Below, one piece after another: positions 9,762 to 58,162 of a stretch of 64,000 bases of DNA. This DNA comes from Allosphingosinicella sp. (GTDB lineage: Bacteria > Pseudomonadota > Alphaproteobacteria > Sphingomonadales > Sphingomonadaceae). Below the pieces are notes generated by a model, which saw only the letters and a list, made by a program, of their open reading frames with translations, was not told the DNA's origin and ran no database searches. Position numbers and translations under genes: made by a program. Position 1 is the first letter of the stretch; every line of letters begins with the position of its first letter. The DNA is taken from positions 19,043-83,042 of the forward strand of contig DASWMS010000058.1 in NCBI GenBank assembly GCA_036399655.1, in the 5' to 3' direction.

Positions 9762-9826
9762 GGCAATTATATACTTGACGAAACACGACCCGGCCCTAAG
9801 GTGGTTTCAACGCCAAGGGGTTTTCG

Positions 9827-39640: not shown

Positions 39641-40393
39641 TCAGACGACGAGGAGGGCGCCGGAGGCCACCACGGGACCGGTGGGCCGGCCGGTCGGCGA
39701 GCCGCCCGTCGGCTCGACGGAAAGGGCGACCGCCGACTGAGCGCGGAAATGCGGCGCGACCTCGACCGGCACCCGGAAGCGTTGCGGCTCTCCTGCGCGC
39801 ACCAGCCCGAGCGAGACCGGCGCGCCGCCCGCCGGGATGACCCACAGCTCGTGATCGTGGCCGGCGGCGCCGGTCAGCCGCCCCGGCGTCACGACCAGGC
39901 TGCGATCCTCCAAATCATAGGCGACCGACAGCGACGTCTCCTCCTCGGGCGAGGCGAGGGCGGCGACCAGCACGCGCGGCCGCTCCGGCTGAGCGGCCGG
40001 CTGGCGCTCGGCGACCGCCGGACGGTCGGTCGTGGCATCGAGGCCGACGACGAGGGCGAGCGAGGCCGCGGCCGCCAGCGCTCCCACCGCGATCGTCCGC
40101 CAGACGCGCAGGCGCCGCTTCAGCGCGACGACGTTGGCCCCCGCGGCCGGAGCCTCCCCGATCGCGCGGCGCACCCGGTCCCAGAGCGCCGGATCGGGCA
40201 CGACCGCTGGCGCTTCGCCGGCGAGCGGCATCAGCCGTTCCTGCCACTGCGCGACGGCGCGCGCGAAACCCTCGTCCGCCGCCTCCAGCCGCCGCACCTC
40301 GGCGAGCGCGCCGCCGTCCAGCAGCCCCAGCGCATATTCCGCGGCGAGCAGGTCCCTCTCGTCCTCGGGCGCGACGGGATCGTCGGCGCTCAT
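39641..40393 (-). CDS. Anti-sigma factor (RskA-like)
   Basis: LAAEYALGLL, W.ERL.PL, one TM, HELWVIP..PVSLG, ALSVEPTGGSPTG.PTGPV. Confidence 0.9.
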   Translation of the reverse strand: MSADDPVAPEDERDLLAAEYALGLLDGGALAEVRRLEAADEGFARAVAQWQERLMPLAGEAPAVVPDPALWDRVRRAIGEAPAAGANVVALKRRLRVWRTIAVGALAAAASLALVVGLDATTDRPAVAERQPAAQPERPRVLVAALASPEEETSLSVAYDLEDRSLVVTPGRLTGAAGHDHELWVIPAGGAPVSLGLVRAGEPQRFRVPVEVAPHFRAQSAVALSVEPTGGSPTGRPTGPVVASGALLVV

Positions 40394-40971
40394 CGATCGA
40401 GACAATCGCGAAGGCGCAGGAGGCCACGGCGGATCCAGCTCTTCATCGTGCCCAGCGGCACGCCTGCGCCCGCGGCGAGCTCGGGATAGGAGAGGCCGCC
40501 GAAGAAGGCGGAGCGGATCGCCGCCGCCTGCCGCGTCTCCAGCTCGTCGACGCAGCCGGTGAGGCGGGCGCGGTCCTCGCCGGCCTGGAGCCGGGCGAGC
40601 GCGTCTTCGCCGCCGTCGGCGACGTCCCGCGCCGCCTCGATCGGCTCGGCCGGCCGCGGGCGGCCGGAGGCGCGCAGCCGGTCGATCGCGCGATTGCGGG
40701 CGATGGCCGCGAGCCAGGTGACGGGGCTCGCCCGCGCGGCATCGAAGCTTCCCGCCCGCCGCCAGACGCTGACATAGACTTCCTGCAACGCGTCCTCCGC
40801 CTCTCCCCTGTCGCCCAAGATACGCAGGATGAGGCCGAACAGCTTCGCGGACGTGCTTTGATAAACTTCCTGGAGTGCGCTTTCGCTGCCCGCCGCGACG
40901 CGGGCGAGCGCTTCCGACAATCGCCGGCGCGCTTCGTTTCCGCTGCTGATGCTGCTTGCCGGCCGGTCCAC
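40390..40971 (-). CDS. ECF sigma factor (SigK/RpoT-like)
   Basis: AEDALQEVYVSVW, WLAAIARNRAIDRLR, GLSYPELA..PLGTMKSWIRRGL; start approximate. Confidence 0.93.
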   Translation of the reverse strand: MDRPASSISSGNEARRRLSEALARVAAGSESALQEVYQSTSAKLFGLILRILGDRGEAEDALQEVYVSVWRRAGSFDAARASPVTWLAAIARNRAIDRLRASGRPRPAEPIEAARDVADGGEDALARLQAGEDRARLTGCVDELETRQAAAIRSAFFGGLSYPELAAGAGVPLGTMKSWIRRGLLRLRDCLDR

Positions 40972-41039
40972 GCAAGGCGTGTCGCACGCGCGCCCGCGCC
41001 CGGCAACCCGGCCGAAAGACGGTGGCTGCATCCGTCCGG

Positions 41040-41066
41040 TGCATCCGCCGACGCCCGCACGCCGTA
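41040..41066 (+). promoter_or_regulatory. Candidate ECF promoter TGCATCC-N16-CGTA
   Basis: 29 nt upstream of small ORF at 41096. Confidence 0.6.
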
Positions 41067-41095
41067 CCTCCATCGAAAACAGCGAGGAGAGACGG

Positions 41096-41332
41096 ATGAC
41101 CTGCTTGAGCCCCCGCCACACGCCGCGCCGCGCGACCGGCCGCTTCGCCACGCGCGGCGAGCTCGTCGGCCACGTCTGGGCGATCCGCCGCCAGCAGCTC
41201 TACCCGAACCTCAGGAAGATCGCCGAAGCCTGCAACGCGACGCTCGACGTCGTGCGCACGATCCTCAATTCGGAGGAAGGCCTGGACGATTATCTGGAGC
41301 GCGGCCTCGCTTTGGGGGCGCCTGCAGCCTGA
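41096..41332 (+). CDS. Small hypothetical protein, possible HTH
   Basis: GAGGAG RBS; 78 aa; LRKIAEACNATLDVVRTIL resembles an HTH. Confidence 0.6.
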   Translation: MTCLSPRHTPRRATGRFATRGELVGHVWAIRRQQLYPNLRKIAEACNATLDVVRTILNSEEGLDDYLERGLALGAPAA

Positions 41333-43698: not shown

Positions 43699-44631
43699 TT
43701 ACGCGCCGGGCACCCCGAGCTCGCGCGCAGCGCCGCGCAGGCGTTGCTGGGCGGCCGCGTCGCCATTGAAGGCCGCCACGCCCGTGCGCAGCGCCTCCGC
43801 CGCACGCTGCGGCTCGCCAAGCATCATCCGGGAACGCATCAGCATGATCCAGCCGTCGGCATCGCGCGGGTTGGTGCCGAGGCGCGCCGCGAGGCGGTCG
43901 ACCATGCCGCGGGCCATTTCGTTCTGCCGGCTCGGCGGAATGGCGCGTGCCGCTTCGAGCTGCTCGCGGGTCGGGCCGGGAATGCCCGCGGTTGCGGTCG
44001 AGGGTGCGGGCGCGGCGGGGAGGCGGCCCGCCAGCGCGATGCCGTTCGCCGCGGCGATCCGCTCGGCGGCCTCGCGGACCTGAGGAACCCACGGCGCGGC
44101 TGCGGGGGCGGTGCGCAGAAGCGCGAGGAGATCGTCGACGGCGCCGCGATGGTCGCCCCTCATGTCGCGCATCGTGGCGAGATAATAGCGCGCCTGCGGG
44201 TGGCCGGGCTCGATCTCGAGCGCGCGGCGGAACAGCCGCTCGGCCTCCGGCGGCGGGTTCCCGCGAGACGTGAGGACCAGCGACTCGGCAAGATAGCCGA
44301 GGTAATCGGCTTTCTCGGGTCTCAGCTCCATCGCGCGGCGGAAGGCGCGTTCGGCGCCTGCCGCGTCGCCGGTTTCGCGAAGGAGAAAGCCGAGGCTGAA
44401 CCAGCCTTCGTCATTGTCCGGATCCTGCCGCAGCCGCTGCTGCAGGCCCGCAATGGTCTCCTCGACGCTCGCCGGCTGCTGCGCGTTCGAAGGCGCCGCT
44501 TCGTTCGCGCTCTCGCCGCCGCCGCTCGAGCGGACGATCGCGGTGCCGACCGCCACCAGCGCGATCAGCCCCGCCGCGGCGAGGGCGAGGGTCGCGGCGC
44601 CCGGGCGGGCGGTCTTGTTCGTGTCCGGCAT
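43699..44631 (-). CDS. Membrane-anchored TPR protein, CcmI/CycH-like
   Basis: One TM; LQQRLRQDPDNDEGW, TPR repeats, MVDRLAARL..NPRDADGWIMLMRS.MMLG. Confidence 0.8.
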   Translation of the reverse strand: MPDTNKTARPGAATLALAAAGLIALVAVGTAIVRSSGGGESANEAAPSNAQQPASVEETIAGLQQRLRQDPDNDEGWFSLGFLLRETGDAAGAERAFRRAMELRPEKADYLGYLAESLVLTSRGNPPPEAERLFRRALEIEPGHPQARYYLATMRDMRGDHRGAVDDLLALLRTAPAAAPWVPQVREAAERIAAANGIALAGRLPAAPAPSTATAGIPGPTREQLEAARAIPPSRQNEMARGMVDRLAARLGTNPRDADGWIMLMRSRMMLGEPQRAAEALRTGVAAFNGDAAAQQRLRGAARELGVPGA

Positions 44632-44750
44632 GGCGCGGATCATCGCGGCAAAAAGATCGAGGTCAAGTCTGGCGCCGCCGCCGCCTGCTGCTAGACTGCG
44701 CCGCCGGGGACTACGCACGCGGGGGCTGCGTAGACAGGGGGCCGGCGGCT

Positions 44751-47291
44751 GTGACGACTTCGTTCAAGATCGCGATCGTCGGCTCGGGTCCCGCGGGCCT
44801 CAGCGCCGCCGCGCGTGCCGCGCAGCTCGGCCTTTCCCACGTGCTGCTCGAAAAGACCGACCACCTTTCCGACACCATCTACAAATATCAGAAGGGCAAG
44901 CACGTCATGGCGACGCCGAGCCAGCTCGTGCTGCGCTCGGACATGGATTTCGAAGCCGGCAAGCGCGAGGCGATCCTCGGCACGTGGGACCGGATGGCCG
45001 CCGAGCACAAGATCAACGTGATGCTCAACGCCGAGGTTAAAGCGATCCGCGGCACAGGACCCGCCATCGAAGGCTCGGTCCAGAAGATCGTCTCGCGGGC
45101 GCGGGACGGCACGACGACGACCAAGGAAATCCAGCGCCACGCGCCGCCCTACGAGATCGTCATGACGAGCGGCGAGACGATCCTGGCCGAAAACGTCATC
45201 CTTGCCATCGGCACGCAGGGCAATCCGAACCTGATGCGCTGCGAAGGGGCGAGCCTGCCGCACGTCACCTACCAGCTCGACGATCCGTACGCGATTTTCG
45301 ACGAGCACATCCTCGTCGTCGGCACGGGCGATGCGGGGATCGAGAATGCGCGCGCGCTCGCCGAGGATCCGGCGCAGGGCAATGTCGTCACCATCCTCAA
45401 TCGCCAGCCTCGCTCGGCGAACGTGCGCGAAAGCTTCGCCACCGCCAAGGAGCCCAACGCCAAGGCGCTCATCCAGGACGACGCCGACGGCCGCCTCACC
45501 ATCCGCTACGAAACCGAGACCAAGGCGGTGGAGCCGGGCTGGGCAATCCTCAACACGCGCGACGGCGAGGAGCGCATCCGCTGCGACCGGATCATCGCCC
45601 GCATCGGCTCCGCGCCGCCGCGCGCCTTCGTCGAGAATTGCGGCATCGAGTTCGCGAGTTCGGACCGGACGGCCTTTCCCAAGCTTTCGCCGGTGTTTGA
45701 GACGACGGCGCCGGGCATCTTCGTGATCGGCGCGCTGGCCGGATACCCGCTGATCAAGCATTGCATGAACCAGGGCTACGACGTCGTCGAATTCGTCAAC
45801 GGCAACCGCGATCTGAAGCCCGCCGACGAGCCGATCCTGGAGCAGAAATTCGCAGGGCTCCCCGGCCGCCGCAGCGTCGACGAGTGGCTCGAATTCCTGC
45901 GCACCAGCGTCTCGATCCTGGAAGGCGTCTCTCCGCTTCAGATGCGCGAGTTCATGCTCGATTCGAAGGTCGAGCATTACCGCGCCGGCGAAGTCATTTT
46001 CGAGCGCAGCGACCCCGGCTCTTCCCTGTTCGGCATCGCCCAAGGCTCGGTCCTCGTCGAGGTGGACGCAAAAGACCGGAAGAAAGTCGTACCCATCGGC
46101 ACGGGCTCGATCTTCGGCGAGGTGGGACTCATCTCCGGCCGCCGCCGGGGCGCGACGGTGCGCGCCGGCGAGGATGCGATCGTCGTCGAAGTGTCGCGCC
46201 TCGCGGCGTTAAAGCTCATGTCGCAGGTCCCGGCCGCCAAGCGCGCGATCACCCGCATCTCGATCGAGCGGCAATTGCTGCAGATGTTCGGCTCAGGCCT
46301 GACGGCGGAAGACCTCACCGAAGTGATCGAAACGGCCAAGGTCGAATCGGTGAAAGCCGGCGAGGCAATCATCGAGGAAGGGGGCGAAGGCTACGACATC
46401 TTCGTCATCCGGCAGGGTTCGATGGTCGTCCAGAAGACGATCGGCGGGAAGCCGGTTTTCCTCTCCTATCTCCCGGCCGGCTCCTATGTCGGCGAAATGG
46501 CGCTGATCGACGGCGGGCGGCGCACCGCGACGGTGCGCGCCGCGGTCAAATCCGAAGTCATCCGCCTCGACGGCGACGCCTTCCGCCGCCTCCTTGGCGC
46601 CAAGCCCGATCTCCTCGCCAAGGCCGAGATCGACATGGCCGGGCGCAAGGCGATCAATGCGCTGATCGAGGAGAAGAAGCACGAATATGGCGGCGTCGTG
46701 GACATGTACTCGTCCATCGCCTCCTTCCTGGTCGAAAACGGCATCGGCGAAGCGACCGACGTGCTCCTCATCGACGAGAAACTCTGCGTCGGCTGCGACA
46801 ATTGCGAGAAGGCCTGCGCCGACAGCCACGAGGGCCTGTCCCGCCTCAACCGCGAGGCCGGCAAGACCTACGCCCACCTCCACGTGCCGACGTCATGCCG
46901 CCACTGCGAGCATCCGCACTGCATGGCCGATTGCCCGCCCAACGCGATCCACCGCGGCGCCGACGGCGAGGTCTTCATCGACGACACCTGCATCGGCTGC
47001 GGCAATTGCCAGAGGAACTGCCCCTACGGCGTCATTCGGATGGAAAAGGTGCCGCCGAGGAAGCCGCCGATGCTCTCCTGGCTGATGTTCGGCTTTGGCC
47101 CCGGCCCCGGGGAGCCGCCGAAGAAATGGACCGAGAAAAGGGTCAGCGCCGAGACTCCGAAGAAGGCGATCAAGTGCGACATGTGCGCCGGCATACGCGG
47201 CGGCCCGGCCTGCGTGCGCGCCTGCCCGACGGGCGCCGCGATCCGCGTCTCGCCGGAGCAGTTTCTTTCCGTGTCACGGCTGGGGGAGTGA
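44751..47291 (+). CDS. FAD/NAD(P)H oxidoreductase + 2 cNMP-binding domains + 4x[4Fe-4S] domain
   Basis: GSGPAGLSAA, VVGTGDAGIE, GIFVIG; FGEVGL..RGATVRA and VGEMAL..RTATVRA; CVGCDNCEKAC, CRHCEHPHCMADCP, CIGCGNCQRNCP, CDMC..PACVRACP. Confidence 0.9.
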   Translation: MTTSFKIAIVGSGPAGLSAAARAAQLGLSHVLLEKTDHLSDTIYKYQKGKHVMATPSQLVLRSDMDFEAGKREAILGTWDRMAAEHKINVMLNAEVKAIRGTGPAIEGSVQKIVSRARDGTTTTKEIQRHAPPYEIVMTSGETILAENVILAIGTQGNPNLMRCEGASLPHVTYQLDDPYAIFDEHILVVGTGDAGIENARALAEDPAQGNVVTILNRQPRSANVRESFATAKEPNAKALIQDDADGRLTIRYETETKAVEPGWAILNTRDGEERIRCDRIIARIGSAPPRAFVENCGIEFASSDRTAFPKLSPVFETTAPGIFVIGALAGYPLIKHCMNQGYDVVEFVNGNRDLKPADEPILEQKFAGLPGRRSVDEWLEFLRTSVSILEGVSPLQMREFMLDSKVEHYRAGEVIFERSDPGSSLFGIAQGSVLVEVDAKDRKKVVPIGTGSIFGEVGLISGRRRGATVRAGEDAIVVEVSRLAALKLMSQVPAAKRAITRISIERQLLQMFGSGLTAEDLTEVIETAKVESVKAGEAIIEEGGEGYDIFVIRQGSMVVQKTIGGKPVFLSYLPAGSYVGEMALIDGGRRTATVRAAVKSEVIRLDGDAFRRLLGAKPDLLAKAEIDMAGRKAINALIEEKKHEYGGVVDMYSSIASFLVENGIGEATDVLLIDEKLCVGCDNCEKACADSHEGLSRLNREAGKTYAHLHVPTSCRHCEHPHCMADCPPNAIHRGADGEVFIDDTCIGCGNCQRNCPYGVIRMEKVPPRKPPMLSWLMFGFGPGPGEPPKKWTEKRVSAETPKKAIKCDMCAGIRGGPACVRACPTGAAIRVSPEQFLSVSRLGE

Positions 47292-47315
47292 GCGCACCGG
47301 CGCCCGCTCCTCACC

Positions 47316-47409
47316 GTCATGCCGGACTTGATCCGGCATCCATGAACACCGGCCTGCGCGTTATCGCGCGGCCTCCTTGTTCATGGATCCTGACTTTCGT
47401 CAGGATGAC
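47316..47409. repeat. Composite REP-like element between oxidoreductase and membrane gene
   Basis: gtcatgccggacttgatccggcatccatgaaca...tgttcatggatcctgactttcgtcaggatgac. Confidence 0.8.
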
Positions 47410-47485: not shown

Positions 47486-48358
47486 ATGGCGACGGGGGCA
47501 GGCAGGACACATCTGGGGAGCGGCGGGACCCATGAGGGCTTCCTGCGGCACCGCCGATTCCGCTGGCTGAAGCTCGCCGTCCTGCTCTCGCTTATTACGA
47601 TCGCTGCCTACGCCCTTTCCGACGTCCAGCCGCGCCACAATGGCGGCTCCTGGCTCGGCTACACGCTGGGGACGATCGGCGCGCTGCTCATCCTCTGGCT
47701 GACCATGCTCGGCATCCGCAAGCGGGCGATGACCCGCGGGCGCTGGTCGCTCAAGTCATGGACCTCTGCGCACGTCTATCTCGGCCTGAGCCTCGTCGTG
47801 ATCGCGACGCTCCACACCGGTTTCCAGTTCGGCTGGAACGTCCACACGCTCGCTTATGCGCTGATGATGCTGGTGATCCTGTCGGGCGTGTACGGCATCT
47901 TCGTCTATGCGACGCTTCCCGATGCGCTGAGCGACAACCGCGCCGAGATGACACGGCCGCAGATGATCGACGCCGTCGCCAAGATCGACCAGCAGCTCCA
48001 GGCCGCCGCCCAGCCGCTTTCCGTCGAGGACGCCCGCCTCGTCACCTTGTCGCTGAAGGAGGATCCGTTCCGCGCCGGCCTCTACCGCCGCCTTTCGGGC
48101 AATCACGGCAATTGCCGCAACGGCAAGGCGCTGAAGCGGATGCGCCTGCGCGCCGCCGGGGCTTCGGGAGGGGAGAAAGAGGCGGCCGCCAGGGTCATCG
48201 AGCTGATGGAGCGCAAGGCCGCCGCGCTCGGGCGCATCCGGCGGCACCTCCGGATCAAGGCGCTGCTCGAAGTCTGGCTCTACGTCCACGTGCCGATCAC
48301 CTTCGCGACGATCGCCGCGCTCGCCGCGCACGTCGTCAGCGTCTTCTTCTACTGGTAG
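47486..48358 (+). CDS. Integral membrane protein, ferric-reductase/heme-b-like
   Basis: About 5-6 TM helices; two H-x13-H pairs (AHVYLG..TLHTG; VHVP..AAHVV). Confidence 0.75.
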   Translation: MATGAGRTHLGSGGTHEGFLRHRRFRWLKLAVLLSLITIAAYALSDVQPRHNGGSWLGYTLGTIGALLILWLTMLGIRKRAMTRGRWSLKSWTSAHVYLGLSLVVIATLHTGFQFGWNVHTLAYALMMLVILSGVYGIFVYATLPDALSDNRAEMTRPQMIDAVAKIDQQLQAAAQPLSVEDARLVTLSLKEDPFRAGLYRRLSGNHGNCRNGKALKRMRLRAAGASGGEKEAAARVIELMERKAAALGRIRRHLRIKALLEVWLYVHVPITFATIAALAAHVVSVFFYW

Positions 48359-48365: not shown

Positions 48366-50213
48366 GTGGCCTATCTCCTCCGCACCGTCTCGCACAGCGC
48401 CGAAGGGCGCGAGATCGTCCGCACCGCCCGCATTGAAGGTGACGTGCTGACGGTCGGCCGCGATCCAGCCTCCAACGTCCACCTGACCGACCTTGCCGTC
48501 GCACTCCGCCACGCGACCGTCACCCGCACCTCGCCGACGCGGCTCGACGTCCTGGCGGGGGAGGGGCTTACCCTCGAATTGAGCGGCCGCAGCGTCGCTG
48601 GCGGCGCCATCCACCTCGGCCAGGGCGGCGACCTTCGCATCGGCAGCCACATCCTGCGCTTCATGCCGACGGAAGCCGGTGCGCCCGATATCGAGGTCAA
48701 TGTCGAGCGGGTGACGGAAGGCGAAACCGCGCTCGGCAAGGCCGACGAGCGCCGCTTTTCGCTCGTCTCGGTCATGCCCGGCAAGCGCCCGCTCGCCTGG
48801 CTCCTCGCCGCCGCCGTGCTGGTCGTCTTCCTCGCCTGGCCGGTGAACGAATTCTACCAGCGCCGCGAGCGCGAGCAGGCCGCCGCCGAGCGCTACAACC
48901 CAGACCGGATGTGGCTGAGCGGGCACCTCAGCGGCGTGCACAAGGGCCTCGAGAACAATTGCACCGCCTGTCACGCCGAGCCCTTCGTCGCGGTGCGCGA
49001 CACCGAATGCCAGGCCTGCCACACGCGGGTCCACGACCACGCCGACAAGGCGCGCCTCGCCCGCGCCCGGCCGGACCTCGACCGCTGGGGCCGCTTCCGC
49101 CTCGCCGTCCAGGAGACGTTCGGCGTGCCGGCGGGGCGCTGCGTCGACTGCCATACCGAGCATGAAGGCCCGCAGGAAATGACGCCGACGCCGCAGCGTT
49201 TCTGCAGCGACTGTCACACAGCGCTCACCGATCGCCTCCCCGACACGCGCCTCGGCAATGCCGGCGACTTCGGCACCGCCCATCCCGAATTCCAGCCCTC
49301 CGTGCTGATCCGCTGGGACAATGAAACGCCGGTGATGCAGCGCGTCTCGCTCGCGAACCGCCCGCCCGAGAATTCGAACCTGCGCTTCCCGCATGCGCTC
49401 CATCTTTCGCGCACCGGCGGCGTCGCGCAGATGGGGCGGCGGCTCGGCCGGCAGCACGGCTTCGGGGCAAGCCTCGTCTGCGCAGACTGCCACCTGCCGA
49501 CGCCGGACGGCACCCGCTTCCAGCCCGTCGACATGGAAGGCGACTGCGCCATGTGCCACGACCTCGCCTTCGACCGGGTCGGCGGCACCACGCGCACGCT
49601 CCGCCACGGCTCGCCCGAGCAGGTCGTCGCCGATCTTCGCGAATATTTCCGGGGGCGGGTTCCGCCACGGCCCTCGATCCTCGGCCCGGACGCGCGCCGC
49701 CGCCCGGGCGACGTCATGCAGATCCGCAACACGATCCAGTACGCCCGCGCCGTGCAGGGGGCCGGCTCGGCCGCCGACCAGGCGATCCGCGGTGTCTTCT
49801 CGCCGAACGGCGCCTGCTACGATTGCCACGTCGTCCAACTCCCGCCGCCCGGCAATTCGCACGCCTACCGGATCCGCCCCGTCGCCTTCCCGACGCGCTA
49901 CATGCAGCACGGCTGGTTCGATCACCGCCCGCATGCGCAGACCGAGTGCGCGACCTGCCACAATGCGGCGGGCTCGCAATCCGCCAACGACCTGCTCCTC
50001 CCGAGGCTGGAAACCTGCCGGACCTGCCACGGCGGCGAGAGCTCCGGCGAGGTTCCTTCCACCTGCGCCATGTGCCACGATTACCATATGGACGAAGGCA
50101 CGCCCGCCATGCTGCTGCGCCAGCGCGTCCGCGGCCGGCGGTGGGAAACGACCACCATCCCCGTCACGCCGCAGCCCGCTGCAGGCATGCCTCCGAGGAG
50201 GGCCCCGCGTTGA
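48366..50213 (+). CDS. FHA-like domain + TM helix + decaheme c-type cytochrome
   Basis: TVGRD..ALRHA; TM LAWLLAAAVLVVFLAWP; 10 CxxCH (CTACH, CQACH, CVDCH, CSDCH, CADCH, CAMCH, CYDCH, CATCH, CRTCH, CAMCH). Confidence 0.9.
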   Translation: MAYLLRTVSHSAEGREIVRTARIEGDVLTVGRDPASNVHLTDLAVALRHATVTRTSPTRLDVLAGEGLTLELSGRSVAGGAIHLGQGGDLRIGSHILRFMPTEAGAPDIEVNVERVTEGETALGKADERRFSLVSVMPGKRPLAWLLAAAVLVVFLAWPVNEFYQRREREQAAAERYNPDRMWLSGHLSGVHKGLENNCTACHAEPFVAVRDTECQACHTRVHDHADKARLARARPDLDRWGRFRLAVQETFGVPAGRCVDCHTEHEGPQEMTPTPQRFCSDCHTALTDRLPDTRLGNAGDFGTAHPEFQPSVLIRWDNETPVMQRVSLANRPPENSNLRFPHALHLSRTGGVAQMGRRLGRQHGFGASLVCADCHLPTPDGTRFQPVDMEGDCAMCHDLAFDRVGGTTRTLRHGSPEQVVADLREYFRGRVPPRPSILGPDARRRPGDVMQIRNTIQYARAVQGAGSAADQAIRGVFSPNGACYDCHVVQLPPPGNSHAYRIRPVAFPTRYMQHGWFDHRPHAQTECATCHNAAGSQSANDLLLPRLETCRTCHGGESSGEVPSTCAMCHDYHMDEGTPAMLLRQRVRGRRWETTTIPVTPQPAAGMPPRRAPR

Positions 50214-51082
50214 CCGACCAGCGCTTCCTGATCGCCCAGATCACCGACGTCCACCTCGGTTTCGACCAGGGGAATCCCGACGAATATAACCGCCAGCGGC
50301 TCGACCGCACCTTGCGCACGCTGATGGAGATGCAGCCGCGCCCGGACATGCTGCTCATCACAGGCGACCTTGCCGAGGAAGGCGACGACAGCGACTCCTA
50401 CGCGCGGCTCAAGGAGGCGATCGCGCCGCTGCCATTTCCCGTGCACATGGCAATGGGCAATCACGACAGCCGCGGCCCGTTCCTCGCCGCCTTTCCCGGG
50501 ACCGGCCACGCCGACGGCTTCATCCAATATGCGATCGAGGACGCGCCGCTGCGTATCCTCATGCTCGATACGCTGGAGGAAGGGCGGCATGGCGGCGGCT
50601 TCTGCGAAGTGCGCGCCGCCTGGCTCGCCGCGCGTCTCGCAGAAGCGCCGGAGCGCCCCACGCTCATCGTCCTCCACCACCCGCCGATCGAAACGGGCCT
50701 GAGCTGGATGACCGAGGACCCGGACGCCGCCTGGGTGCAGCGCCTGCGCGCCGTGATCGAGGCTCACACGAACATTCTCGCGATGATCGGCGGTCATCTC
50801 CACCGGCCGGTCATCACCGGCTGGGCGGGAACGATTCTGGCCGTCTGCCCGTCGACGGCGCCGCAGGTCGCGCTCGATCTCGCGCCGATCGATCCCGAGC
50901 GCCCGGACGGCCGCGCGATGATCGTGGCCGACCATCCCGCTTTCGCGCTGCACCTCTGGAACGGCCGCCAGCTCGTCACCCATTTCGACACGGCCGAGGA
51001 CCACAATGTCCTCGCGAGCTACACCCCGAAGCTCCAGCCGCTCGTGCGCCTGCTCACCGACGAGAGGAACAACCCCTCCTGA
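50210..51082 (+). CDS. Metallophosphoesterase, CpdA/Icc/GpdQ-like phosphodiesterase
   Basis: TTG overlaps upstream stop; QITDVH, TGDL, GNHD, HHPP, GHLH. Confidence 0.88.
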   Translation: MTDQRFLIAQITDVHLGFDQGNPDEYNRQRLDRTLRTLMEMQPRPDMLLITGDLAEEGDDSDSYARLKEAIAPLPFPVHMAMGNHDSRGPFLAAFPGTGHADGFIQYAIEDAPLRILMLDTLEEGRHGGGFCEVRAAWLAARLAEAPERPTLIVLHHPPIETGLSWMTEDPDAAWVQRLRAVIEAHTNILAMIGGHLHRPVITGWAGTILAVCPSTAPQVALDLAPIDPERPDGRAMIVADHPAFALHLWNGRQLVTHFDTAEDHNVLASYTPKLQPLVRLLTDERNNPS

Positions 51083-51385: not shown

Positions 51386-51895
51386 TTACGGTTGGAGCCG
51401 CGCGAGGATCGCCTCGACGCCCGCTTTCACGCCCGCATCGGGAGCGTGGGCGCTCATGCCGGGCAGGATCTCCATTCGGATGATCTGCGCGGCCGTTTCG
51501 TCCGGAAGCGCCTGCCTGAGACCGTCGCCGACTGCAATTCGCACGCGCCGGTCGTCCATGGCGAAGAGCAGGATGACACCGTCGTCGTGCCCGCGCCGGC
51601 CGATGCCCCAGCGGTTGCCGAGATCGCGGGTATAGTCGGCAATGCCGCGGCCGTTCGTGGTCCGGACCGTGACGAGGATGAACTGGTGCCCCGTCCGCCG
51701 CTCGAAGCCGCGGAGGCGCTCCGCGATCCTGTGCTCGTCGGCGGCGAGGAGCATGCCGGCCGAGTCGACGACATAGGCCGGACGCTCGAGAGTGGAGCTG
51801 ACCGCCGCCCGCCCCGGCGCCTGCGCATTGCCGCCGTCGGCGGCGGGCGTGCAGGCCGCGGCGACTGCGAGCGCGGCGAACAGGACGCGCCTCAA
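51386..51895 (-). CDS. TPM-domain lipoprotein
   Basis: TTG overlaps upstream stop; AAAC lipobox; VVDSAGML, TGHQFILVT, WGIGRRGHDDGVILLFA..DRRVRIAVG.GL. Confidence 0.85.
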   Translation of the reverse strand: MRRVLFAALAVAAACTPAADGGNAQAPGRAAVSSTLERPAYVVDSAGMLLAADEHRIAERLRGFERRTGHQFILVTVRTTNGRGIADYTRDLGNRWGIGRRGHDDGVILLFAMDDRRVRIAVGDGLRQALPDETAAQIIRMEILPGMSAHAPDAGVKAGVEAILARLQP

Positions 51896-54800
51896 CGCGC
51901 CGGCACCCAGTCGGCGAGGGAGCCGCGGTCGGTCACGCGGTAGGGCAGGCCGCGGCGGTTGAGGAACAGGCGCTCCATCTCGCTGCGGGTAAAGGGACGC
52001 GAGCCGAGACGGCCGAAGACGGCGATCTGGTTGCCGGTCTCGTCGACGCCGCGGTCGCGGTCGAGCCCCTTGGACAAAGCAAGGGCGGGGGAGGGGGTGC
52101 GCGCCCAGGCGATAAGCTCGGGCACCGGCCGCGGCGAGAAGCCGTAGAAATTGGGCTGGCTCTCCGGGCTGGTGAGCTGGAACAGTTTGAACCCGTTCAG
52201 CCCGTCCGCGACGTAGGCGAAGAGCGAGGCGTTGGTCGAGCCGACGATCACGTCCTGCGCGTCCGGCGCCTGCCCCGCTGGCCAGGCCACGGCAGGTCCG
52301 GCGGCGGGCCGCTCGGGATTGGTGATGTCGAGGATCACGAGCCCGTCGCGCCCGCCCGCCACGTAAGCGTAGGTGCGGGCGAGATAGAGCCGCCGCGCGT
52401 CCGCCATCCGGTGCGTCGCTTCCGGGATCAGGCGCGGCGCGCGCAGGTCGGTGACGTCGATGAGCTGCACGCCCTCGGCGCTTGTGACCCAAAGGTAGCG
52501 GAACTGGATCGCGGACGCGCGCGCGTCGCGGAGCGGGATCGTCGTCACATGCCGCGGCGCGAGCGGCTCGTTAAGATCGACGACGACGAGCCCCGCATCG
52601 GCGGCGATGTAGGCGACGGTGCCGGCAAGCGTGATGTGCCGCGCGCCCGCGAGCACACCGCCCTCGTTCCAGGCGGTACCGCCCGCCGTGAAGGTCGCGC
52701 GACGGATGAAATTGTTGCGCGGGTCGGCGTCGGCGAGGGTGTCGACGTCGACCAGGATCAGGCCTTCCTCGGCGTCGGTGACGACGGCGTAATCGTAGAT
52801 GGGGTGGAAGCCCTGCTCCTGGTTCTCGGCAAGGAGGCTGGTCGTCGTCCCGTCCGGCTGCGGCCGCGTCGTGGCGGCCATGGCGCGGTTGCGGTCCGGC
52901 GCGATCGGCTGGTTGGTGGGGAGCGCCATGCAGGTCGCGTTGCGGCTTGCGACCCGCGTGTCCTGGCCCATGGACGAGAAGGGCGCGGTGACGATCCGCT
53001 CGGACGTGCCCTTGTTGCCGATGTTCGCGACGTCGTAGACCCGGAAGCCGCCGCTTCCTTCCGCCACGAACATATATTCGCCGCGCTGCTGGAGGCAGCG
53101 GACCGCGCCGTCCGTTCCTTGCACGACGTTGCGGAATTCCTCGAGCGGCCGCGTCTCGCCGCTGCGGTTCCGGTCGAACGTGCGCCCGCGCGTCCAGTTG
53201 ACGAGCTCCCGCCGGTTCCGCTCGACATGCATCCGGTAATAATCCGGATAGGCCATGCGCTGGAGGTAGGAGCCGATCACCGCCTGCGGCTCGTCCCATT
53301 CCGTCACCCGCACCGCTTCGAAGCCTGAGTTCAGCCCGACCCACGAGTGCATGCCGACGAAGTTGACGAAGTTCGTCCCCTGCAAAAGGAGCTGCGCCAT
53401 GATCGCATTGTTGTCGTTCGCTGCCGACACATGGCAGTCGCTGCACGTCTTGGTCTCGGTGCGGCGCACGGTGTGCGGGAAGTGCGGCGCGAAGGCCTGG
53501 CTCGAAAAGCCGGACGCCGAGATCGGCGGCTGCTGGACGTAGATGCGCTCGCGATTGATGTTGGTCGACGACAGGATCAGCGCCGAGGTCGATCGGATCG
53601 GCGCGATGATGTTGCCGCGCGTCGTCATGTGGCGGCCGAGCTGGAACATGTCCTCGCGCGCCACCTGCGGATTGTAGGTTGCGAAGTTGCGCGTCTCTTC
53701 GCCGTCGTAGCGGTGCGACGTCGTCCGCCAGTTCGCCTCGATCGGGAGGTGGCAGCCGGCGCAGCTCGTCGTCCATGAAAGGTGGCAGGTGAAGCAGGCC
53801 ATCTCGTCGTCGGGATGGGCGAGCGCGTCGTCGGCGACGCCTGCTCCAAACACGAACCGCCCGGTGTCCGCGCCCTCCCGCGACATGAGCTTGGAGCGCG
53901 CCGAAAGTTCGTTGAAGCACGGGCCGGTGCTCATCCCCTGCGACGCCGGTCCGCAGGGCGGCAAGTCCCGGTCGACACTGTCGCGGACCTGGCTCACCAC
54001 CCACTCGATCTGCGGATCGACGATCGAGCGCTGGATGAGCACGCGGCGCCCCGCATCGTCCTGCATCCATTCGAAGCGCCGTCGCCCGTCCTCGTTCCTG
54101 ATCAGCTCCAGGTTCGTGCCGTTGGGGGGCGCGGCCGGTCCGGAGGTGCGCAGGTTGGCGAAGGCGCGCGCGGTGCCGTGGCAATCCTTGCAGCTGATCT
54201 CGATGGCGTTCGCGACTTCGCCGTAGATGAAGCCGGTGCCGTGGCTGTCGCGCGAGAAATGGCAGTCCGCGCATTGCATGCCGCGCTCGGCATGGATGTC
54301 CATCATGTGCACCGCGCGCCCCGGATTGGTGCCGGGCGGGACGAACAGCCCTTCATTTTCGCGGCGGAAGGTGTTCGGGTCGCCGGGCGGAATCCGCTGG
54401 CCGTCCTCGTCGACGAGATTGCCCTCGCGGTCGCGGCGGAAGATGGCGCGGAAGTTCCAGCCGTGGCCGTGATAGTCGGCGAACTGGGTGTGGCGCGCGA
54501 GCGGGTTCACCCGGTCGTACACTTCGCGAAGGAAATCGGTCTCCGCCCAAAGCCCGCGCGGGGCCGCGCCTTCCGGATTGCGGTTGAGCACTTCCAGCGT
54601 CTCCGCCGCCGTCGGATAGCGCTGCTGGCGGAAGCGCGCTTCCTCCTCGGCATTGCGCGCGGGCAGGCGGTTCTCCGGCCCCGGCCACATCAGATCGGCG
54701 TCGGATTCGTAGTCCCACATCGTGTAGCCGAGATACGAGTTCAGGAAGATGTTCGGCTGGTGCATGTGGCAGACCATGCATTGCGACGTCGGTATCGCGC

Positions 54801-56142
54801 GCGTGAAGACGTGGCGGATCGGATGCCCGCGTTCGCGCATTGCGGCGTGATTTGTGTCCGTTGGAGCGTCGCTATGCTGCGCAGCATTTTGCGGCTCTGC
54901 GCTCGCAGTTTCCGGCCCGTGAGCGCCGCGCTCAGTCAGCCCTGAGATCGTCGGATCGACCGTCGCCGTCTGCCCGTCGCGCCCGTGCTCGGCATAAGCG
55001 AGGCTGTGCCGCGGCTCGCGGTCGTTGGCGTAGACGACATGGCAGCCCGAGCAGCCGGAGTGGCGATAATCGCCCGGCTGGTCGTTCGTCCCCATGAACC
55101 ACATGAAGGGATCGTTGAGCCGCGTCTTGTGGATGTTGAGCACGGGGATGGCGACGCGCAGCCCTGTGCCGGGTCCGCGGTTCGACTGGCGGATGTCGGG
55201 CCGCCCCGCTTCCTCCAGCCGCTGGATCGATCCCGAAGGAGAGGGGAGGCCGATCTCCGGAAATTGCGTCCCGATCGTCCGCCCGCCGCGCTCGAAGACG
55301 CGGAACACGTCGCCCGGCGGAATGACGTGCCAGGTCGGCAGCGGATAGAGTTCGGCGATCACGCCGCGCGCGCGCTGCTCCGGCGTGATCTCGCCCGGAA
55401 TCGTCCCCGGCGACTGGATGCGCGCCGGCTGGCCGGAGCGCGTATAGGCCTCGCCGAACAGATAATTCTTATAAGGGACGATGCCGTTATTGTAGGCGGC
55501 CCCGCCCCACAGCATCGCGCCCGTCGCCATGAGCGAGCGCTCGGCCGCTTCGATGATCTCGATATGGCAGGCGCCGCACGCTTCGCGCGCCGCGCGGTAA
55601 TCGGACGGGTTGTTGAAGCGCACGAACTCCGGCGATTCGATGTTGAGCAGGGTGTAGCTTTGCCGCGGGTTGGCGGAGGAGGGGAAGTGCCAGGCGGCCG
55701 GATAGCGCGGCAGCACGTGAGCGAGATCGCGCGCCGCCACATAAGCGGGATCGTTCGCGGCGAGGTTTCCCGCCGGCGCGGTGACCCGCGGATTGCCGCC
55801 GTGGCAATCGACGCAGCCGAGCACCACCGCGGGCGTCCGGTGCATCGTGTGCGAGTCGCTCCCCGTGTGGCACGACACGCAGCCCGAGCTCTGCGCTTCC
55901 GCCGCCACCGGGTCCTGCGTCCGCGGCGCCGGCGCCGCGCGCACGAGGCTGTAATCCCGCGCGACCGCCTTCTCCTTTTCGGACGCACCGGCGGGCCCGG
56001 CCAGCATCCCCGCCAACTCCGTCATTCCCGCGAAAGCGGGAATCCAGGCCCAGCCTTTCCACCCGCTTCGGCGCCCCGCGGAAACGCTCGCTGGATTCCC
56101 GCTTTCGCGGGAATGACGGCGGAGGGCGAACAGGCGCCGCAT
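51892..56142 (-). CDS. Giant decaheme c-type cytochrome with C-terminal LVIVD repeats (1416 aa)
   Basis: ATG coupled to upstream TGA (TGATG); 10 CxxCH (CVSCH, CVDCH, CGACH, CSGCH, CMVCH, CADCH, CKDCH, CFTCH, CAGCH, CSDCH); about 6 repeats like YAYVAGGRDGLVILDITNP. Confidence 0.88.
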   Translation of the reverse strand: MRRLFALRRHSRESGNPASVSAGRRSGWKGWAWIPAFAGMTELAGMLAGPAGASEKEKAVARDYSLVRAAPAPRTQDPVAAEAQSSGCVSCHTGSDSHTMHRTPAVVLGCVDCHGGNPRVTAPAGNLAANDPAYVAARDLAHVLPRYPAAWHFPSSANPRQSYTLLNIESPEFVRFNNPSDYRAAREACGACHIEIIEAAERSLMATGAMLWGGAAYNNGIVPYKNYLFGEAYTRSGQPARIQSPGTIPGEITPEQRARGVIAELYPLPTWHVIPPGDVFRVFERGGRTIGTQFPEIGLPSPSGSIQRLEEAGRPDIRQSNRGPGTGLRVAIPVLNIHKTRLNDPFMWFMGTNDQPGDYRHSGCSGCHVVYANDREPRHSLAYAEHGRDGQTATVDPTISGLTERGAHGPETASAEPQNAAQHSDAPTDTNHAAMRERGHPIRHVFTRAIPTSQCMVCHMHQPNIFLNSYLGYTMWDYESDADLMWPGPENRLPARNAEEEARFRQQRYPTAAETLEVLNRNPEGAAPRGLWAETDFLREVYDRVNPLARHTQFADYHGHGWNFRAIFRRDREGNLVDEDGQRIPPGDPNTFRRENEGLFVPPGTNPGRAVHMMDIHAERGMQCADCHFSRDSHGTGFIYGEVANAIEISCKDCHGTARAFANLRTSGPAAPPNGTNLELIRNEDGRRRFEWMQDDAGRRVLIQRSIVDPQIEWVVSQVRDSVDRDLPPCGPASQGMSTGPCFNELSARSKLMSREGADTGRFVFGAGVADDALAHPDDEMACFTCHLSWTTSCAGCHLPIEANWRTTSHRYDGEETRNFATYNPQVAREDMFQLGRHMTTRGNIIAPIRSTSALILSSTNINRERIYVQQPPISASGFSSQAFAPHFPHTVRRTETKTCSDCHVSAANDNNAIMAQLLLQGTNFVNFVGMHSWVGLNSGFEAVRVTEWDEPQAVIGSYLQRMAYPDYYRMHVERNRRELVNWTRGRTFDRNRSGETRPLEEFRNVVQGTDGAVRCLQQRGEYMFVAEGSGGFRVYDVANIGNKGTSERIVTAPFSSMGQDTRVASRNATCMALPTNQPIAPDRNRAMAATTRPQPDGTTTSLLAENQEQGFHPIYDYAVVTDAEEGLILVDVDTLADADPRNNFIRRATFTAGGTAWNEGGVLAGARHITLAGTVAYIAADAGLVVVDLNEPLAPRHVTTIPLRDARASAIQFRYLWVTSAEGVQLIDVTDLRAPRLIPEATHRMADARRLYLARTYAYVAGGRDGLVILDITNPERPAAGPAVAWPAGQAPDAQDVIVGSTNASLFAYVADGLNGFKLFQLTSPESQPNFYGFSPRPVPELIAWARTPSPALALSKGLDRDRGVDETGNQIAVFGRLGSRPFTRSEMERLFLNRRGLPYRVTDRGSLADWVPAR
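56019..56119. repeat. REP-like element in frame within N-terminus of giant cytochrome
   Basis: Same family as 2767-2859; translates RHSRESGNP...WIPAFAGMT. Confidence 0.85.
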
Positions 56143-58160
56143 CAGTAAGTCACGATCGCGTTCAGGAGCACGGAATAGTATCGGTCGTGCCGGGGCTGGT
56201 TGGCGAACAGGTCGCGAAAGCCGGTGCCGGGCTGCAGCGCCGCCGCCGAGGCGCGGAAGACGAGGTTCTGAGTCATGCGCGGCCGCCAGATCGCCGCCGC
56301 CGACACGTCGAAGCCGATGTCGTTGCGGATGGTCCCCTGCATCCGCAGCGCCTCCATCGTGCCCGTCCGCGCGAACCAGAGGTGGTTCAAGTTCGCCGAC
56401 AGCCGGAAGGTCGGCGTGATGTCGAAGTCCGCGCCGGCCCCCAAGAGGATCGTTCCCGGATTGACGAAGTTCGACTGCCCCTGCTCCTTGGAGGAGCGCA
56501 GCGAATTCAGGATGCCGTTGCGCCCGCTGAGGACGATCGCCCGCCCGCCGCCGGCAAACGGGATGGACTGGCGGATCCAATAGCTCGTGTCGGCGCCTGC
56601 GAAGATCGGGTTCTCGAAGATCGAATCGAACCCGCTTTCGACATTGTCGTAAGGATCGCCGTCCCCGCTCGCGAACAGGGCGGCCCCGCGCACCCTGATC
56701 CAGTTCATGTCGTAGCTCGGCTCCGCGGCGGCGAAGAAGCTCGTAATCCGCGCATTCTCGCCGGTGAAGATGTTCTTCCGGTTGTGCCCCAGCGCCGCAT
56801 AGGTCTGCGCCGAAAGGTTCACCCGCCCGATCCGCCCGTCGGCGGCATAGCCGACGTACAGGACGTCGTAATTGCGCCCGCGCAGGTTTCCGATCAGCGC
56901 CGGCCGCACCGGAAAGCCGTTGTCGTCCACCTCGACATCGCCGCGCTCGCGGTTGACGTTCAAGGTGACGCTCGCCTGGCTCGTCATGCCGACGAAGGGG
57001 AAATCCTGGCGGTAGACGTTCGCCGCCAGGATCCAGTCGCTCCGCGGCCATTGCAGGATGTTGTTGAGGCCGGAATTCGTGTCCTTTTCCAGCCGCCAGA
57101 TCGCCATGACATTGTACTGGAACCGGTTGTTGTCCCGATTGCCGAACAGGCGGACGCCGAGCTGGTTGTCGTTGAACAGGAAGCCGCGGAAATCGAACTG
57201 GAAGGGCTGGATGCCGACGCGGACCGAGTCGAAGTCGTAGCGGTCCGACACGTTGCGCAGATGGTCGTCGACGAACAGTTCCTGGACGCCGATCGCGTAA
57301 TCGAAGCGGTTGGTGCCCTTGGACGGCTCCACGAAGAGCACCCGCCGCTCCGGCACATCGACATAGTTGGCCTGCACCGCCAGGGTGACCCGATATTCGC
57401 GGTGCGGCGGCATGTAGGCGGTCGAGCCCTCGATCAGCGCGGCGCCGACGATGAACGTCTGGGCGAGGACCAGGCTCTCGCTGCGCCCGAAGACGTCGAG
57501 GCTTCCGGGACGCTGCGTCGTCTGCACGCCGACGGGGATCGGAAAGTTGCGCGGCTCGATCACCGTGTCCGAGACGGCGTTCGCGACCAGGAACCAGCCG
57601 TCGCCGTGGAGGCCGAGCGCGCGCGTCAGCCGGCAGCCGTAGCTGCGCGGCCGCTCCTCGCCGACGCAGAGCGGCCTGTCGCCCTTCAGCGTGTTCTGGT
57701 TGTAGGGATCGAACCAGCGTTCCCGCACCACGCCCAGCGACTCGATGAGCCGCCAGCGGTCCGGAACCGGAATCTGGTCGGTTGGAAACGCTTCGGGCGG
57801 CGGCGATCGGATTGCGCCCGGATTCTCCTGCACGACCGGATCGGGAAGCTCATGCTGCGGCGTTCCGGGGCGGCGTCGGCCTTCTTCGTCCGGCGTCTGC
57901 TCCTCCGGGCGCTCGGCGGGCGGCACCTGCCCGGGCCACCAGCCCGGCTCCTGCTGCGTCGGCGGCGTCGAGGGAGGCTGCGCCGCCTGAGCCCACACCG
58001 CGTCATTCCCGCGAAAGCGGGAATCCATGAACACCGCGTGCGCAAATCTTTCCCCGCCTGTGTTCATGGATGCCGGATCAAGTCCGGCATGACGGGGAAG
58101 GGCTGCACCGCCCGGATCGAGGGCGGCGGCGAGGTGGAGGAGCGGGCCTGCAACCTGCAC
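56142..58160 (-). CDS. Predicted outer-membrane beta-barrel protein
   Basis: GTG 2 nt after upstream stop; Pro/Glu-rich N-region, then amphipathic strand patterns; C-terminus YYSVLLNAIVTY ending in an aromatic residue. Confidence 0.72.
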   Translation of the reverse strand: MQVAGPLLHLAAALDPGGAALPRHAGLDPASMNTGGERFAHAVFMDSRFRGNDAVWAQAAQPPSTPPTQQEPGWWPGQVPPAERPEEQTPDEEGRRRPGTPQHELPDPVVQENPGAIRSPPPEAFPTDQIPVPDRWRLIESLGVVRERWFDPYNQNTLKGDRPLCVGEERPRSYGCRLTRALGLHGDGWFLVANAVSDTVIEPRNFPIPVGVQTTQRPGSLDVFGRSESLVLAQTFIVGAALIEGSTAYMPPHREYRVTLAVQANYVDVPERRVLFVEPSKGTNRFDYAIGVQELFVDDHLRNVSDRYDFDSVRVGIQPFQFDFRGFLFNDNQLGVRLFGNRDNNRFQYNVMAIWRLEKDTNSGLNNILQWPRSDWILAANVYRQDFPFVGMTSQASVTLNVNRERGDVEVDDNGFPVRPALIGNLRGRNYDVLYVGYAADGRIGRVNLSAQTYAALGHNRKNIFTGENARITSFFAAAEPSYDMNWIRVRGAALFASGDGDPYDNVESGFDSIFENPIFAGADTSYWIRQSIPFAGGGRAIVLSGRNGILNSLRSSKEQGQSNFVNPGTILLGAGADFDITPTFRLSANLNHLWFARTGTMEALRMQGTIRNDIGFDVSAAAIWRPRMTQNLVFRASAAALQPGTGFRDLFANQPRHDRYYSVLLNAIVTY
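58001..58094. repeat. Composite REP-like element in frame within beta-barrel N-terminus
   Basis: cgtcattcccgcgaaagcgggaatccatgaaca...tgttcatggatgccggatcaagtccggcatgacg; translates RHAGLDPAS...MDSRFRGND. Confidence 0.85.
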
Positions 58161-58162
58161 GC

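Follow-up and report, generated by a model that had tools for sequence, protein, structure and literature searches.

A 64,000-nucleotide (nt) stretch of an Allosphingosinicella sp. genome (assembly GCA_036399655.1, contig DASWMS010000058.1), hereafter the window, carries on its plus strand the gene for a c-type cytochrome in which an N-terminal domain, predicted to have a forkhead-associated (FHA) fold, is joined through a single transmembrane (TM) helix to ten CxxCH heme motifs. With moderate confidence, we favor the view that this decaheme protein acts as the periplasm-facing wire subunit of an inner membrane (IM) electron-transfer module, together with an oxidoreductase and a 5-TM protein encoded upstream, and that its FHA domain would serve as a module for docking or regulation that works independently of phosphorylation. 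The domain architecture, the family to which the protein belongs, the conserved order of its neighboring genes, and the degenerate state of its FHA pocket are established here. The gene and its parts, the names of which refer where indicated to the ptd cluster discussed below, are as follows.

48366–50213, plus strand: FHA-TM-decaheme c-type cytochrome gene, PtdG-like (615 amino acids (aa), GTG start)
48366–48680, plus strand: cytoplasmic FHA-fold domain, residues 1–105 (predicted from a PDB profile, an AlphaFold (AF2) model, Foldseek, and column statistics)
48789–48845, plus strand: single TM helix, residues 142–160, PLAWLLAAAVLVVFLAWPV, predicted N-in signal anchor (sole hydrophobic segment)
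48936–50105, plus strand: periplasmic decaheme domain, residues 191–580 (10 CxxCH, 10 distal His, Pfam)

Architecture of the cytochrome and its N-domain

The N terminus of the 48366–50213 product lines up, position by position, with the conserved 'MAFLLR' at which its homologues start. Its ten CxxCH motifs, at residues 199, 215, 259, 280, 372, 394, 484, 528, 551, and 567, take up all 20 of its cysteines, and the pattern is therefore not due to chance. Across 63 relatives, down to 26% identity, the ten motifs are invariant, as are ten further His (H192, 225, 266, 306, 343, 346, 414, 520, 523, and 574). Ten CxxCH with ten distal His is the pattern expected of ten bis-His hemes. Bioinformatic analysis with Pfam identified Cytochrome_C7 (46.2 bits, cut-off 24.8), Paired_CXXCH_1 (43.6 bits, cut-off 20.6), and Cytochrom_c3_2 (42.1 bits, cut-off 25), and a sequence comparison of the decaheme domain with the PDB gave weak matches to Geobacter c7 and dodecaheme GSU1996-type domains. 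No Cytochrom_NNT (NapC/NirT), DmsE/MtrA, or comparable family was among the Pfam/NCBIfam matches reported at E ≤ 0.1, the HMMER filters dropping most matches weaker than this. A chance open reading frame (ORF) in GC-rich DNA was ruled out by the homologues, the Pfam matches, and the location of every Cys inside CxxCH.

The hydrophobic segment at residues 142–160 is the only one in the protein, and nothing resembling a signal peptide was seen at its N terminus. A cleaved signal peptide was ruled out, with 141 folded residues lying ahead of that segment. Because c-type heme is attached by Ccm on the periplasmic side, an arrangement with the FHA domain inside, one helix across the membrane, and the hemes outside is the only consistent topology. 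Net charge is +3 before the helix and 0 after it, which also fits a cytoplasmic FHA domain and periplasmic hemes, as does the adjacent CcmI-like cytochrome c maturation gene described below. Among distant relatives, the TM helix is the most conserved part of the protein (39% identity, with 24% for the FHA domain and 30–36% for the heme domain), which fits packing against a membrane partner. All heme motifs lie at least 39 residues past the helix.

Pfam gave a single match for the N-domain of the window protein, Yop-YscD_cpl (E = 8e-4, 20 bits, below the cut-off of 33.2), which we take to be an FHA-like family; PF00498 (FHA) was not among the Pfam matches reported for this cytochrome. Several more distant relatives score above the PF00498 cut-off of 20.7 (for example, P0241 with 30.1, P0172 with 26.6, and P0209 with 26.4 bits). 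When a profile of 28 N-domains was compared with the PDB, 18 of the 19 matches at E ≤ 10 were FHA-domain proteins (GarA, OdhI, Rad53, EmbR, and KIF13B among them, best E ∼1e-4), the sole other match being a pectate lyase at E = 0.66. The AF2 model of the N-domain (pLDDT 80) is an 11-strand β structure. As assessed by Foldseek, the best 50 PDB matches listed for this model are FHA or FHA-like, with probabilities of 0.99–1.00 and TM-scores of up to 0.70 on the target, and include the EssC FHA domain. On these profile and model comparisons, the N-domain is predicted to have an FHA fold.

The best sequence and structure matches, GarA and OdhI, are actinobacterial regulators of 2-oxoglutarate dehydrogenase in which the FHA domain binds metabolic redox enzymes directly. 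Those proteins are soluble, kinase-switched, and keep the Ser-Arg pocket, whereas the domain described here is degenerate and membrane-tethered. In a HMMER alignment to GarA, G31-R32 falls on the canonical GR, and V45-A46-L47-R48-H49 falls on V-S-R-x-H. In the pocket of the window protein, Ala46-Leu47 replaces the canonical Ser-Arg and Ser73 replaces the canonical Asn, with D42, H49-A50, and G93 kept. Over 128 diverse relatives, the core signature is nearly invariant (G31 in 127, R32 in 126, D42 in 120, H49 in 107, A50 in 112, and G93 in 121). At the canonical Ser site, the 128 full-length relatives have Ala (48), Ser (17), Gly (13), Pro (10), Leu (9), Arg (9), or Glu (6); the canonical Arg site is Leu in 96, and the canonical Asn site is Asn in 73 and Asp in 34, i.e. 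either of the two in 107. Some relatives carry V-S-L-x-H. These columns suggest that the fold is conserved and that the phosphate pocket is not under selection across the family.

With its Ser-Arg lost, the FHA domain would not read phosphothreonine. The opposite proposal, in which the domain is a working phosphothreonine reader whose binding switches the conduit once a distant Ser/Thr kinase has phosphorylated the oxidoreductase, the membrane subunit, or the linker of the cytochrome itself, would account for the almost invariant G31-R32 and H49, for the Asn or Asp at position 73 in most relatives, for the V-S-L-x-H variants, and for the relatives that exceed the Pfam FHA threshold. We nevertheless consider it improbable, given the three substitutions in the window protein and the unconstrained Ser position across the family. 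In addition, no Hanks-kinase or PP2C motif was found by regular expression in the six frames of the window, and a Pfam scan of 34 window proteins identified no kinase, PP2C, or nucleotide cyclase, although small or atypical kinases could slip through this combined search; the other loci whose gene tables were inspected likewise contain no kinase or PP2C. FHA-like domains that function independently of phosphate are, moreover, well known. In the type III secretion proteins YscD/EscD (Yop-YscD_cpl) and the type VII secretion protein EssC, an FHA-like domain on the cytoplasmic side precedes a membrane anchor and provides structural docking that needs no phosphothreonine; their extracytoplasmic part belongs to a secretion machine, and homology is confined to the FHA fold. 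As judged from its sequence, the domain is best read as serving docking or regulation without dependence on phosphorylation.

Variants of the N-terminal region bear on whether this domain has a role at all. One relative (P0234, L085 620–2704) has a PilZ-FHA-TM-decaheme architecture (PilZ 49 bits, cut-off 22.5), PilZ being a receptor domain for cyclic di-GMP (c-di-GMP). Another (P0227, 438 aa) is an FHA-less variant that begins just ahead of the TM helix and keeps ten hemes. In a third (P0151, on the short contig L086), an unrelated N-terminal region of ∼250 aa replaces the FHA domain, possibly through a fusion or an assembly artefact. Because an FHA-less TM-decaheme variant exists, the domain appears accessory to heme function, yet the near-invariant core motif and the addition of PilZ ahead of it in one lineage suggest that it is functional. 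The FHA-less variant and the faster divergence of the FHA domain than of the heme domain would also suit a domain without ligand, which would be either a relic or a folded plug on the cytoplasmic side that holds the signal anchor in its N-in orientation. This we regard as very improbable, because the FHA domain is kept in most of the best 150 representatives, G31-R32, D42, H49-A50, and G93 are so nearly invariant, 18 N-domain positions are invariant among close relatives, and a PilZ fusion ahead of the FHA domain fits a functional cytoplasmic module.

A first-pass annotation of this gene, made from the sequence, had proposed an FHA-like N-domain followed by one TM helix and ten CxxCH motifs, with cytoplasmic FHA and periplasmic hemes, and the profile, modeling, and topology results above agree with it on each of these points. 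It had also read a kept GR with A-L-R-H in place of S-x-x-H, which the GarA alignment confirms, and concluded that the pocket might not bind phosphothreonine, a degeneracy that extends across the 128 relatives. Its remarks that no Ser/Thr kinase is visible in the window and that the domain may act as a scaffold stand as well, docking being our preferred reading.

Operon partners and a proposed electron path

The cytochrome gene is the third of four on the plus strand, preceded by genes for an oxidoreductase and a 5-TM protein and followed by a phosphodiesterase gene, the TTG start of which overlaps the cytochrome stop codon (GCGTTGACC). A divergent gene for a cytochrome c maturation protein lies upstream.

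44751–47291, plus strand: cytoplasmic oxidoreductase, 846 aa, PtdC and PtdE fused (Pfam, NCBIfam, PDB relatives, Cys groups)
47486–48358, plus strand: 5-TM protein, 290 aa, candidate diheme-b subunit, PtdF-like (His pattern, position)
50210–51082, plus strand: class III metallophosphoesterase, CpdA/SpdA/Rv0805/GpdQ-like (Pfam, NCBIfam; class III motifs by eye)
43699–44718, minus strand: TPR protein of the CcmH/CycH (CcmI-like) cytochrome c maturation type, divergent (TPR_CcmH_CycH 75.5 bits, cut-off 42)

The 5-TM protein, the start of which we place at ATG 47486 (the mechanical ORF begins at TTG 47420), has two His pairs with H-x13-H spacing, H96/H110 in TM3 and H268/H282 in TM5, plus H120. 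The pairs are invariant in 40 close and five distant relatives. The same spacing is known from diheme membrane cytochromes b and ferric-reductase-domain proteins, and the His pattern points to two b hemes stacked across the membrane. Transmembrane electron transfer is therefore plausible, the membrane subunit holding a heme-b-like four-His pattern that the first-pass annotation had missed. Next to cytochromes of only 30–34% identity, the 5-TM protein is 40–54% identical with all five His kept, and in each informative locus its gene still directly precedes the cytochrome gene. TM4 and TM5 are separated by an insert of ∼120 aa (residues 141–262) that is cytoplasmic, basic, and conserved. There is also an invariant H-E-G-F-L-R-H motif at the N terminus (residues 16–22), and a basic loop, RKRAMTRGRW, contains an invariant Thr. 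The insert, the motif, and the loop are candidate docking surfaces for the ferredoxin or FHA domain. Sequence comparison of the 5-TM protein with the PDB gave no match, its single Pfam match was Ni_hydr_CYTB (20.5 bits, below the cut-off of 30.1), and Ferric_reduct was absent among the Pfam/NCBIfam matches reported.

The oxidoreductase joins a TrxR/YpdA-like FAD/NAD(P) domain without CxxC and two cyclic nucleotide (cNMP)-binding domains to a HycB/NrfC-like part, a predicted four-cluster ferredoxin domain in which the Cys form four groups. Its PDB relatives are the regulatory (R) subunits of protein kinase A, HycB, NrfC, and YpdA, the cNMP-binding domains resembling protein kinase A R-subunits and CRP. 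The second cNMP-binding domain contains the motif GEMALIDGGRRTATVRA, which we read as a canonical phosphate-binding cassette. At the DNA level, the cassettes of the tandem cNMP-binding domains form a direct repeat (46114–46167 and 46489–46542, 76% identity); of the two, only domain B, with R-T-A, looks fully canonical, domain A having R-G-A.

In a survey of 82 close loci, sequence matches were found for the membrane subunit in 78, in each of which its gene is directly upstream of the cytochrome gene, for the oxidoreductase and the phosphodiesterase in 75 each, for the CcmI-like protein in 65, and for an LVIVD cytochrome in 61, most loci without a match being short contigs that end close to the cytochrome gene. 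The oxidoreductase is also present in L084 and L087, two of the three distant loci with a visible upstream region. A CcmI-like gene is present in L083, with CcmA/B. Beside the distant cluster of L084 (1–1140) is a gene for a CHASE2-nucleotide cyclase, and L083 (3021–8741) has KaiC-like and KaiB genes and a 1177-aa PAS/GAF sensor.

Features of the module that we infer are heme b binding by the 5-TM protein, complex formation, gating by cNMP, the identity of the FHA partner, and the direction in which electrons flow. The oxidoreductase, the 5-TM protein, and the FHA-decaheme cytochrome would form a three-protein IM module in which electrons pass from NAD(P)H to FAD, through a [4Fe-4S] chain to an inner and then an outer heme b, and on to the ten c hemes. 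Through its FHA domain, the heme subunit would be tethered on the cytoplasmic side to either the oxidoreductase or the large insert of the 5-TM protein. Electron flow would be gated by a cyclic nucleotide that the oxidoreductase senses and the co-transcribed phosphodiesterase removes; this is proposed because there are two cNMP-binding domains, a co-transcribed phosphodiesterase, and a CHASE2-cyclase by one distant cluster.

Known systems offer partial parallels. CbcL of Geobacter couples a diheme-b membrane element to a periplasmic multiheme c part, and the IM multiheme gates CbcL and ImcH of Geobacter and CymA of Shewanella all join a membrane heme-b or anchor element to periplasmic c hemes. 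In NOX/FRD proteins, a cytoplasmic NAD(P)H-flavin part feeds two stacked b hemes that lead outside. None of these has cytoplasmic FHA or cNMP domains. Here, the donor, membrane, and heme-c parts are three separate proteins. By analogy to CbcL or CymA/NapC, the 5-TM protein and FHA-decaheme could instead form a quinol:cytochrome c (or cytochrome c:quinone) oxidoreductase, linked to the quinone pool and perhaps running inward, with the flavo-FeS protein as a regulator or alternative input. Two H-x13-H helices are also found in quinol-oxidizing cytochromes b, and members of the membrane family have weak Pfam matches to prokaryotic cytochrome b561 and Ni_hydr_CYTB. The FHA-cytochrome of L083 has no adjacent oxidoreductase, and a quinone link is proposed in a preprint on Ferrigenium (bioRxiv 10.64898/2026.01.22.701106). 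On the other hand, the oxidoreductase adjoins in 75 of the 82 close loci and in most distant ones with a visible upstream region, its HycB/NrfC-type domain is of the kind that docks onto membrane subunits, Cytochrom_NNT is absent among the reported Pfam matches, and with the heme motifs so far past the helix there is no membrane-surface heme as in CymA/NrfH. We therefore regard a quinone-linked enzyme as possible, if rather doubtful.

Several points count against the NAD(P)H-fed module that we favor. L083 keeps the 5-TM protein and the FHA-cytochrome without an adjacent oxidoreductase, so that the cytoplasmic feed is perhaps not universal and the oxidoreductase cannot be the sole FHA partner. 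For the 5-TM protein, no match to a curated family exceeded the threshold, the AF2 model is of low confidence (pLDDT 66), and Foldseek gave no significant match. The FHA domain is less conserved than the heme domain among distant relatives; G-R and H are kept in it and 17 of the 128 relatives have the canonical Ser, so some members may bind phosphate. None of the RNA runs searched for the cytochrome gene contains it, and every member of the family is known from sequence description alone. Finally, the Ferrigenium authors favor inward flow from Fe(II) oxidation (bioRxiv 10.64898/2026.01.22.701106).

Outer module and other features of the window

A five-gene minus-strand operon (51386–61632), with start/stop overlaps of 1–2 nt, converges on the plus-strand operon. 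It encodes a tetraheme c554-like cytochrome, an HbpS-like lipoprotein, a probable outer membrane (OM) barrel, an LVIVD decaheme cytochrome, and a TPM-domain protein (lipoprotein).

51892–56142, minus strand: large decaheme cytochrome with LVIVD β-propeller region, PtdA analogue, putative outer/periplasmic partner (10 CxxCH, Pfam LVIVD)
56142–58000, minus strand: candidate OM β-barrel, PtdB analogue (position, C-terminal aromatic, ...LLNAIVTY)
58163–60118, minus strand: HbpS-like (PF03928) lipoprotein, 651 aa (Pfam 76.5 bits; lipobox LLASC by eye)
60118–61632, minus strand: tetraheme cytochrome, c554-like, PtdD analogue (4 CxxCH, Pfam Cytochrome_C554)

The LVIVD decaheme, which gave a weak ExtM-like match, is found not only in the 61 close loci but also in L083, L084, and L085. 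In these three loci, the outer set comes directly after the FHA-cytochrome (genes for the HbpS-like protein, a ∼600-aa protein, the LVIVD-cytochrome, and c554), and the tetraheme c554-like protein is kept. The HbpS-like lipoprotein is kept in the same loci and in L002. The product of 56142–58000, the gene start of which is approximate and lies downstream of REP-like repeats (58001–58103), has no Pfam match. Its position and C-terminal aromatic residue suggest that it is probably an OM barrel or porin. Proteins of 597–696 aa occupy the same position in L002, L083, L084, and L085, and since sequence matches were found in only 21 of the 82 loci, its orthology comes mainly from position. In the module that we propose, electrons would leave the FHA-decaheme for the neighboring tetraheme, the LVIVD-decaheme, and the OM barrel, these proteins together constituting a trans-envelope conduit.

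A REP-like palindromic element of 48 nt (47306–47353) lies between the oxidoreductase and membrane subunit genes, with an inverted copy at 58056–58103. A second REP-like element of 27–29 nt, CGTCATTCCCGCGAAAGCGGGAATCCA, occurs three times (56019–56119 and 58001–58103), around the 5' ends of the LVIVD-decaheme and OM-barrel genes. These repeats inflate the mechanical ORFs and may form RNA hairpins within the operons. Elsewhere, the window encodes an IS1595-family transposase (9800–10732), an ECF sigma factor with a probable anti-sigma factor (39641–41151), and a BlaR1-type M56 peptidase (24975–26417), as well as housekeeping functions (AccB/AccC, ThiG, NadA/NadC, CoA transferase, DAHP synthase, and a TonB-dependent receptor).

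Distribution, described relatives, and meaning

The first-pass annotation had called the pairing of an FHA fold with a multiheme wire unusual. It is instead the norm of a very large family that is already in the literature. A word-indexed search returned 908 homologues, mostly from metagenome-assembled genomes (MAGs) of Allosphingosinicella and other Sphingomonadales and named 'cytochrome c3 family protein', and an exhaustive search of 50%-identity representatives returned 2449 clusters at E < 1e-3, 534 of them at E < 1e-30. Exactly ten CxxCH were counted in 129 of the best 150 representatives; for most of the 150, the alignment begins at query residues 1–28 and so includes the FHA domain. A GTDB scan, with one genome per species and two peptide patterns alone, found at least 562 carrier species. 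The best 80 of these are all Sphingomonadales, and breadth at the phylum level rests on the representative library and the literature. Cultured carriers include Sphingosinicella terrae KCTC 52780, Sphingomonas cavernae, S. laterariae, and S. fennica. At the cytochrome gene, the window is 94% identical to an Allosphingosinicella MAG, and the same stretch is also present in full in a biocrust metagenome run. Among soil Allosphingosinicella and Sphingosinicella, the system is close to universal, and it is also found in cultured Sphingomonas.

The ptdABCDEFG cluster was named in a 2023–24 preprint on marine Alphaproteobacteria UBA11136 and others (bioRxiv 10.1101/2023.11.21.568154). There, PtdF is 'ferric reductase-like', PtdG is a 'periplasmic' decaheme, the FHA domain goes unmentioned, and extracellular electron transfer is suspected (bioRxiv 10.1101/2023.11.21.568154). 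Like the window, this cluster combines an FAD/NAD(P) oxidoreductase, a cNMP and 4Fe-4S protein, a TM protein, a decaheme, a tetraheme, a porin, and a further multiheme with a β-rich domain. Every ptd component (PtdC–G plus A, B, and D) has a counterpart in the window, an equivalence drawn from architecture and not from sequence comparison. The two differ in several respects. In the window, a single fusion protein of 846 aa corresponds to PtdC and PtdE, ten hemes and LVIVD repeats in the PtdA analogue take the place of the five hemes and β-sandwich of PtdA, the phosphodiesterase and the HbpS-like lipoprotein belong to the cluster, and the genes of the outer module run on the opposite strand. 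The window comes from a soil/biocrust sphingomonad, whereas the ptd host is marine.

Two further descriptions come from iron oxidizers. The nonaheme cytochrome NHC of Ferrigenium straubiae has a cytosolic FHA domain and one TM helix and is encoded beside 5-TM and 4Fe-4S proteins; the authors of this 2026 preprint state that FHA with multiheme was previously unreported (bioRxiv 10.64898/2026.01.22.701106). A 2023 Gallionellaceae pangenome lists a 'Forkhead-associated protein' with 10 CXXCH in 27 genomes (PMC10734462). NHC and the Gallionellaceae cluster resemble the window in their cytosolic FHA, one TM helix, periplasmic multiheme, and 5-TM and 4Fe-4S neighbors. NHC differs in that the described isolate has nine hemes, the neighborhood is nirK/SHP, and the host is an Fe(II) oxidizer for which inward flow is proposed. 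The NHC preprint recognizes no redox motif in the neighboring 5-TM protein, whereas the family in the window has four invariant His, and no FAD/cNMP part or phosphodiesterase was reported there. The Tenderiales uet cluster, followed as an LVIVD/multiheme lead, and a Rhodovulum lead were found to be unrelated. The window gene is a further case of a family already described in three papers and experimentally uncharacterized. What is new here is the family-wide degeneracy of the pocket, the four invariant His of the membrane partner, the oxidoreductase fusion and the phosphodiesterase, the PilZ-fused and FHA-less variants, and the spread among soil Allosphingosinicella and Sphingosinicella and into cultured Sphingomonas.

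The first-pass annotation also had the protein linking cytoplasmic signaling to periplasmic hemes, which is overstated: the context is that of an electron-transfer module, and signaling through cNMP or PilZ is a proposal built on it. Taken to its full extent, that proposal is a second-messenger-gated, NAD(P)H-driven trans-envelope conduit of aerobic soil sphingomonads, in which cNMP binding would alter the engagement of the flavo-FeS protein with the FHA domain and switch electron export, the phosphodiesterase would reset the switch, and PilZ would bring in c-di-GMP elsewhere. We put this forward tentatively and consider it unlikely in its entirety. If true, this would give the FHA fold a new role, as a phospho-independent clutch joining a cytoplasmic redox enzyme to a periplasmic heme wire.

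The module is an unusually complete candidate for a regulated electron gate, with a cNMP sensor, a phosphodiesterase reset, a flavin/Fe-S donor, putative b hemes, and a ten-heme wire, and its FHA domain offers a clean case for phospho-independent FHA function. Since relatives occur in cultured isolates that may be genetically amenable, the questions raised by the ptd and Ferrigenium preprints become testable. If the electron path that we propose is correct, many soil and biocrust Sphingomonadales, cultured aerobes included, would move cytoplasmic reducing power across both membranes, and electron exchange with minerals, humics, or partner cells would be anticipated in a wider set of organisms.

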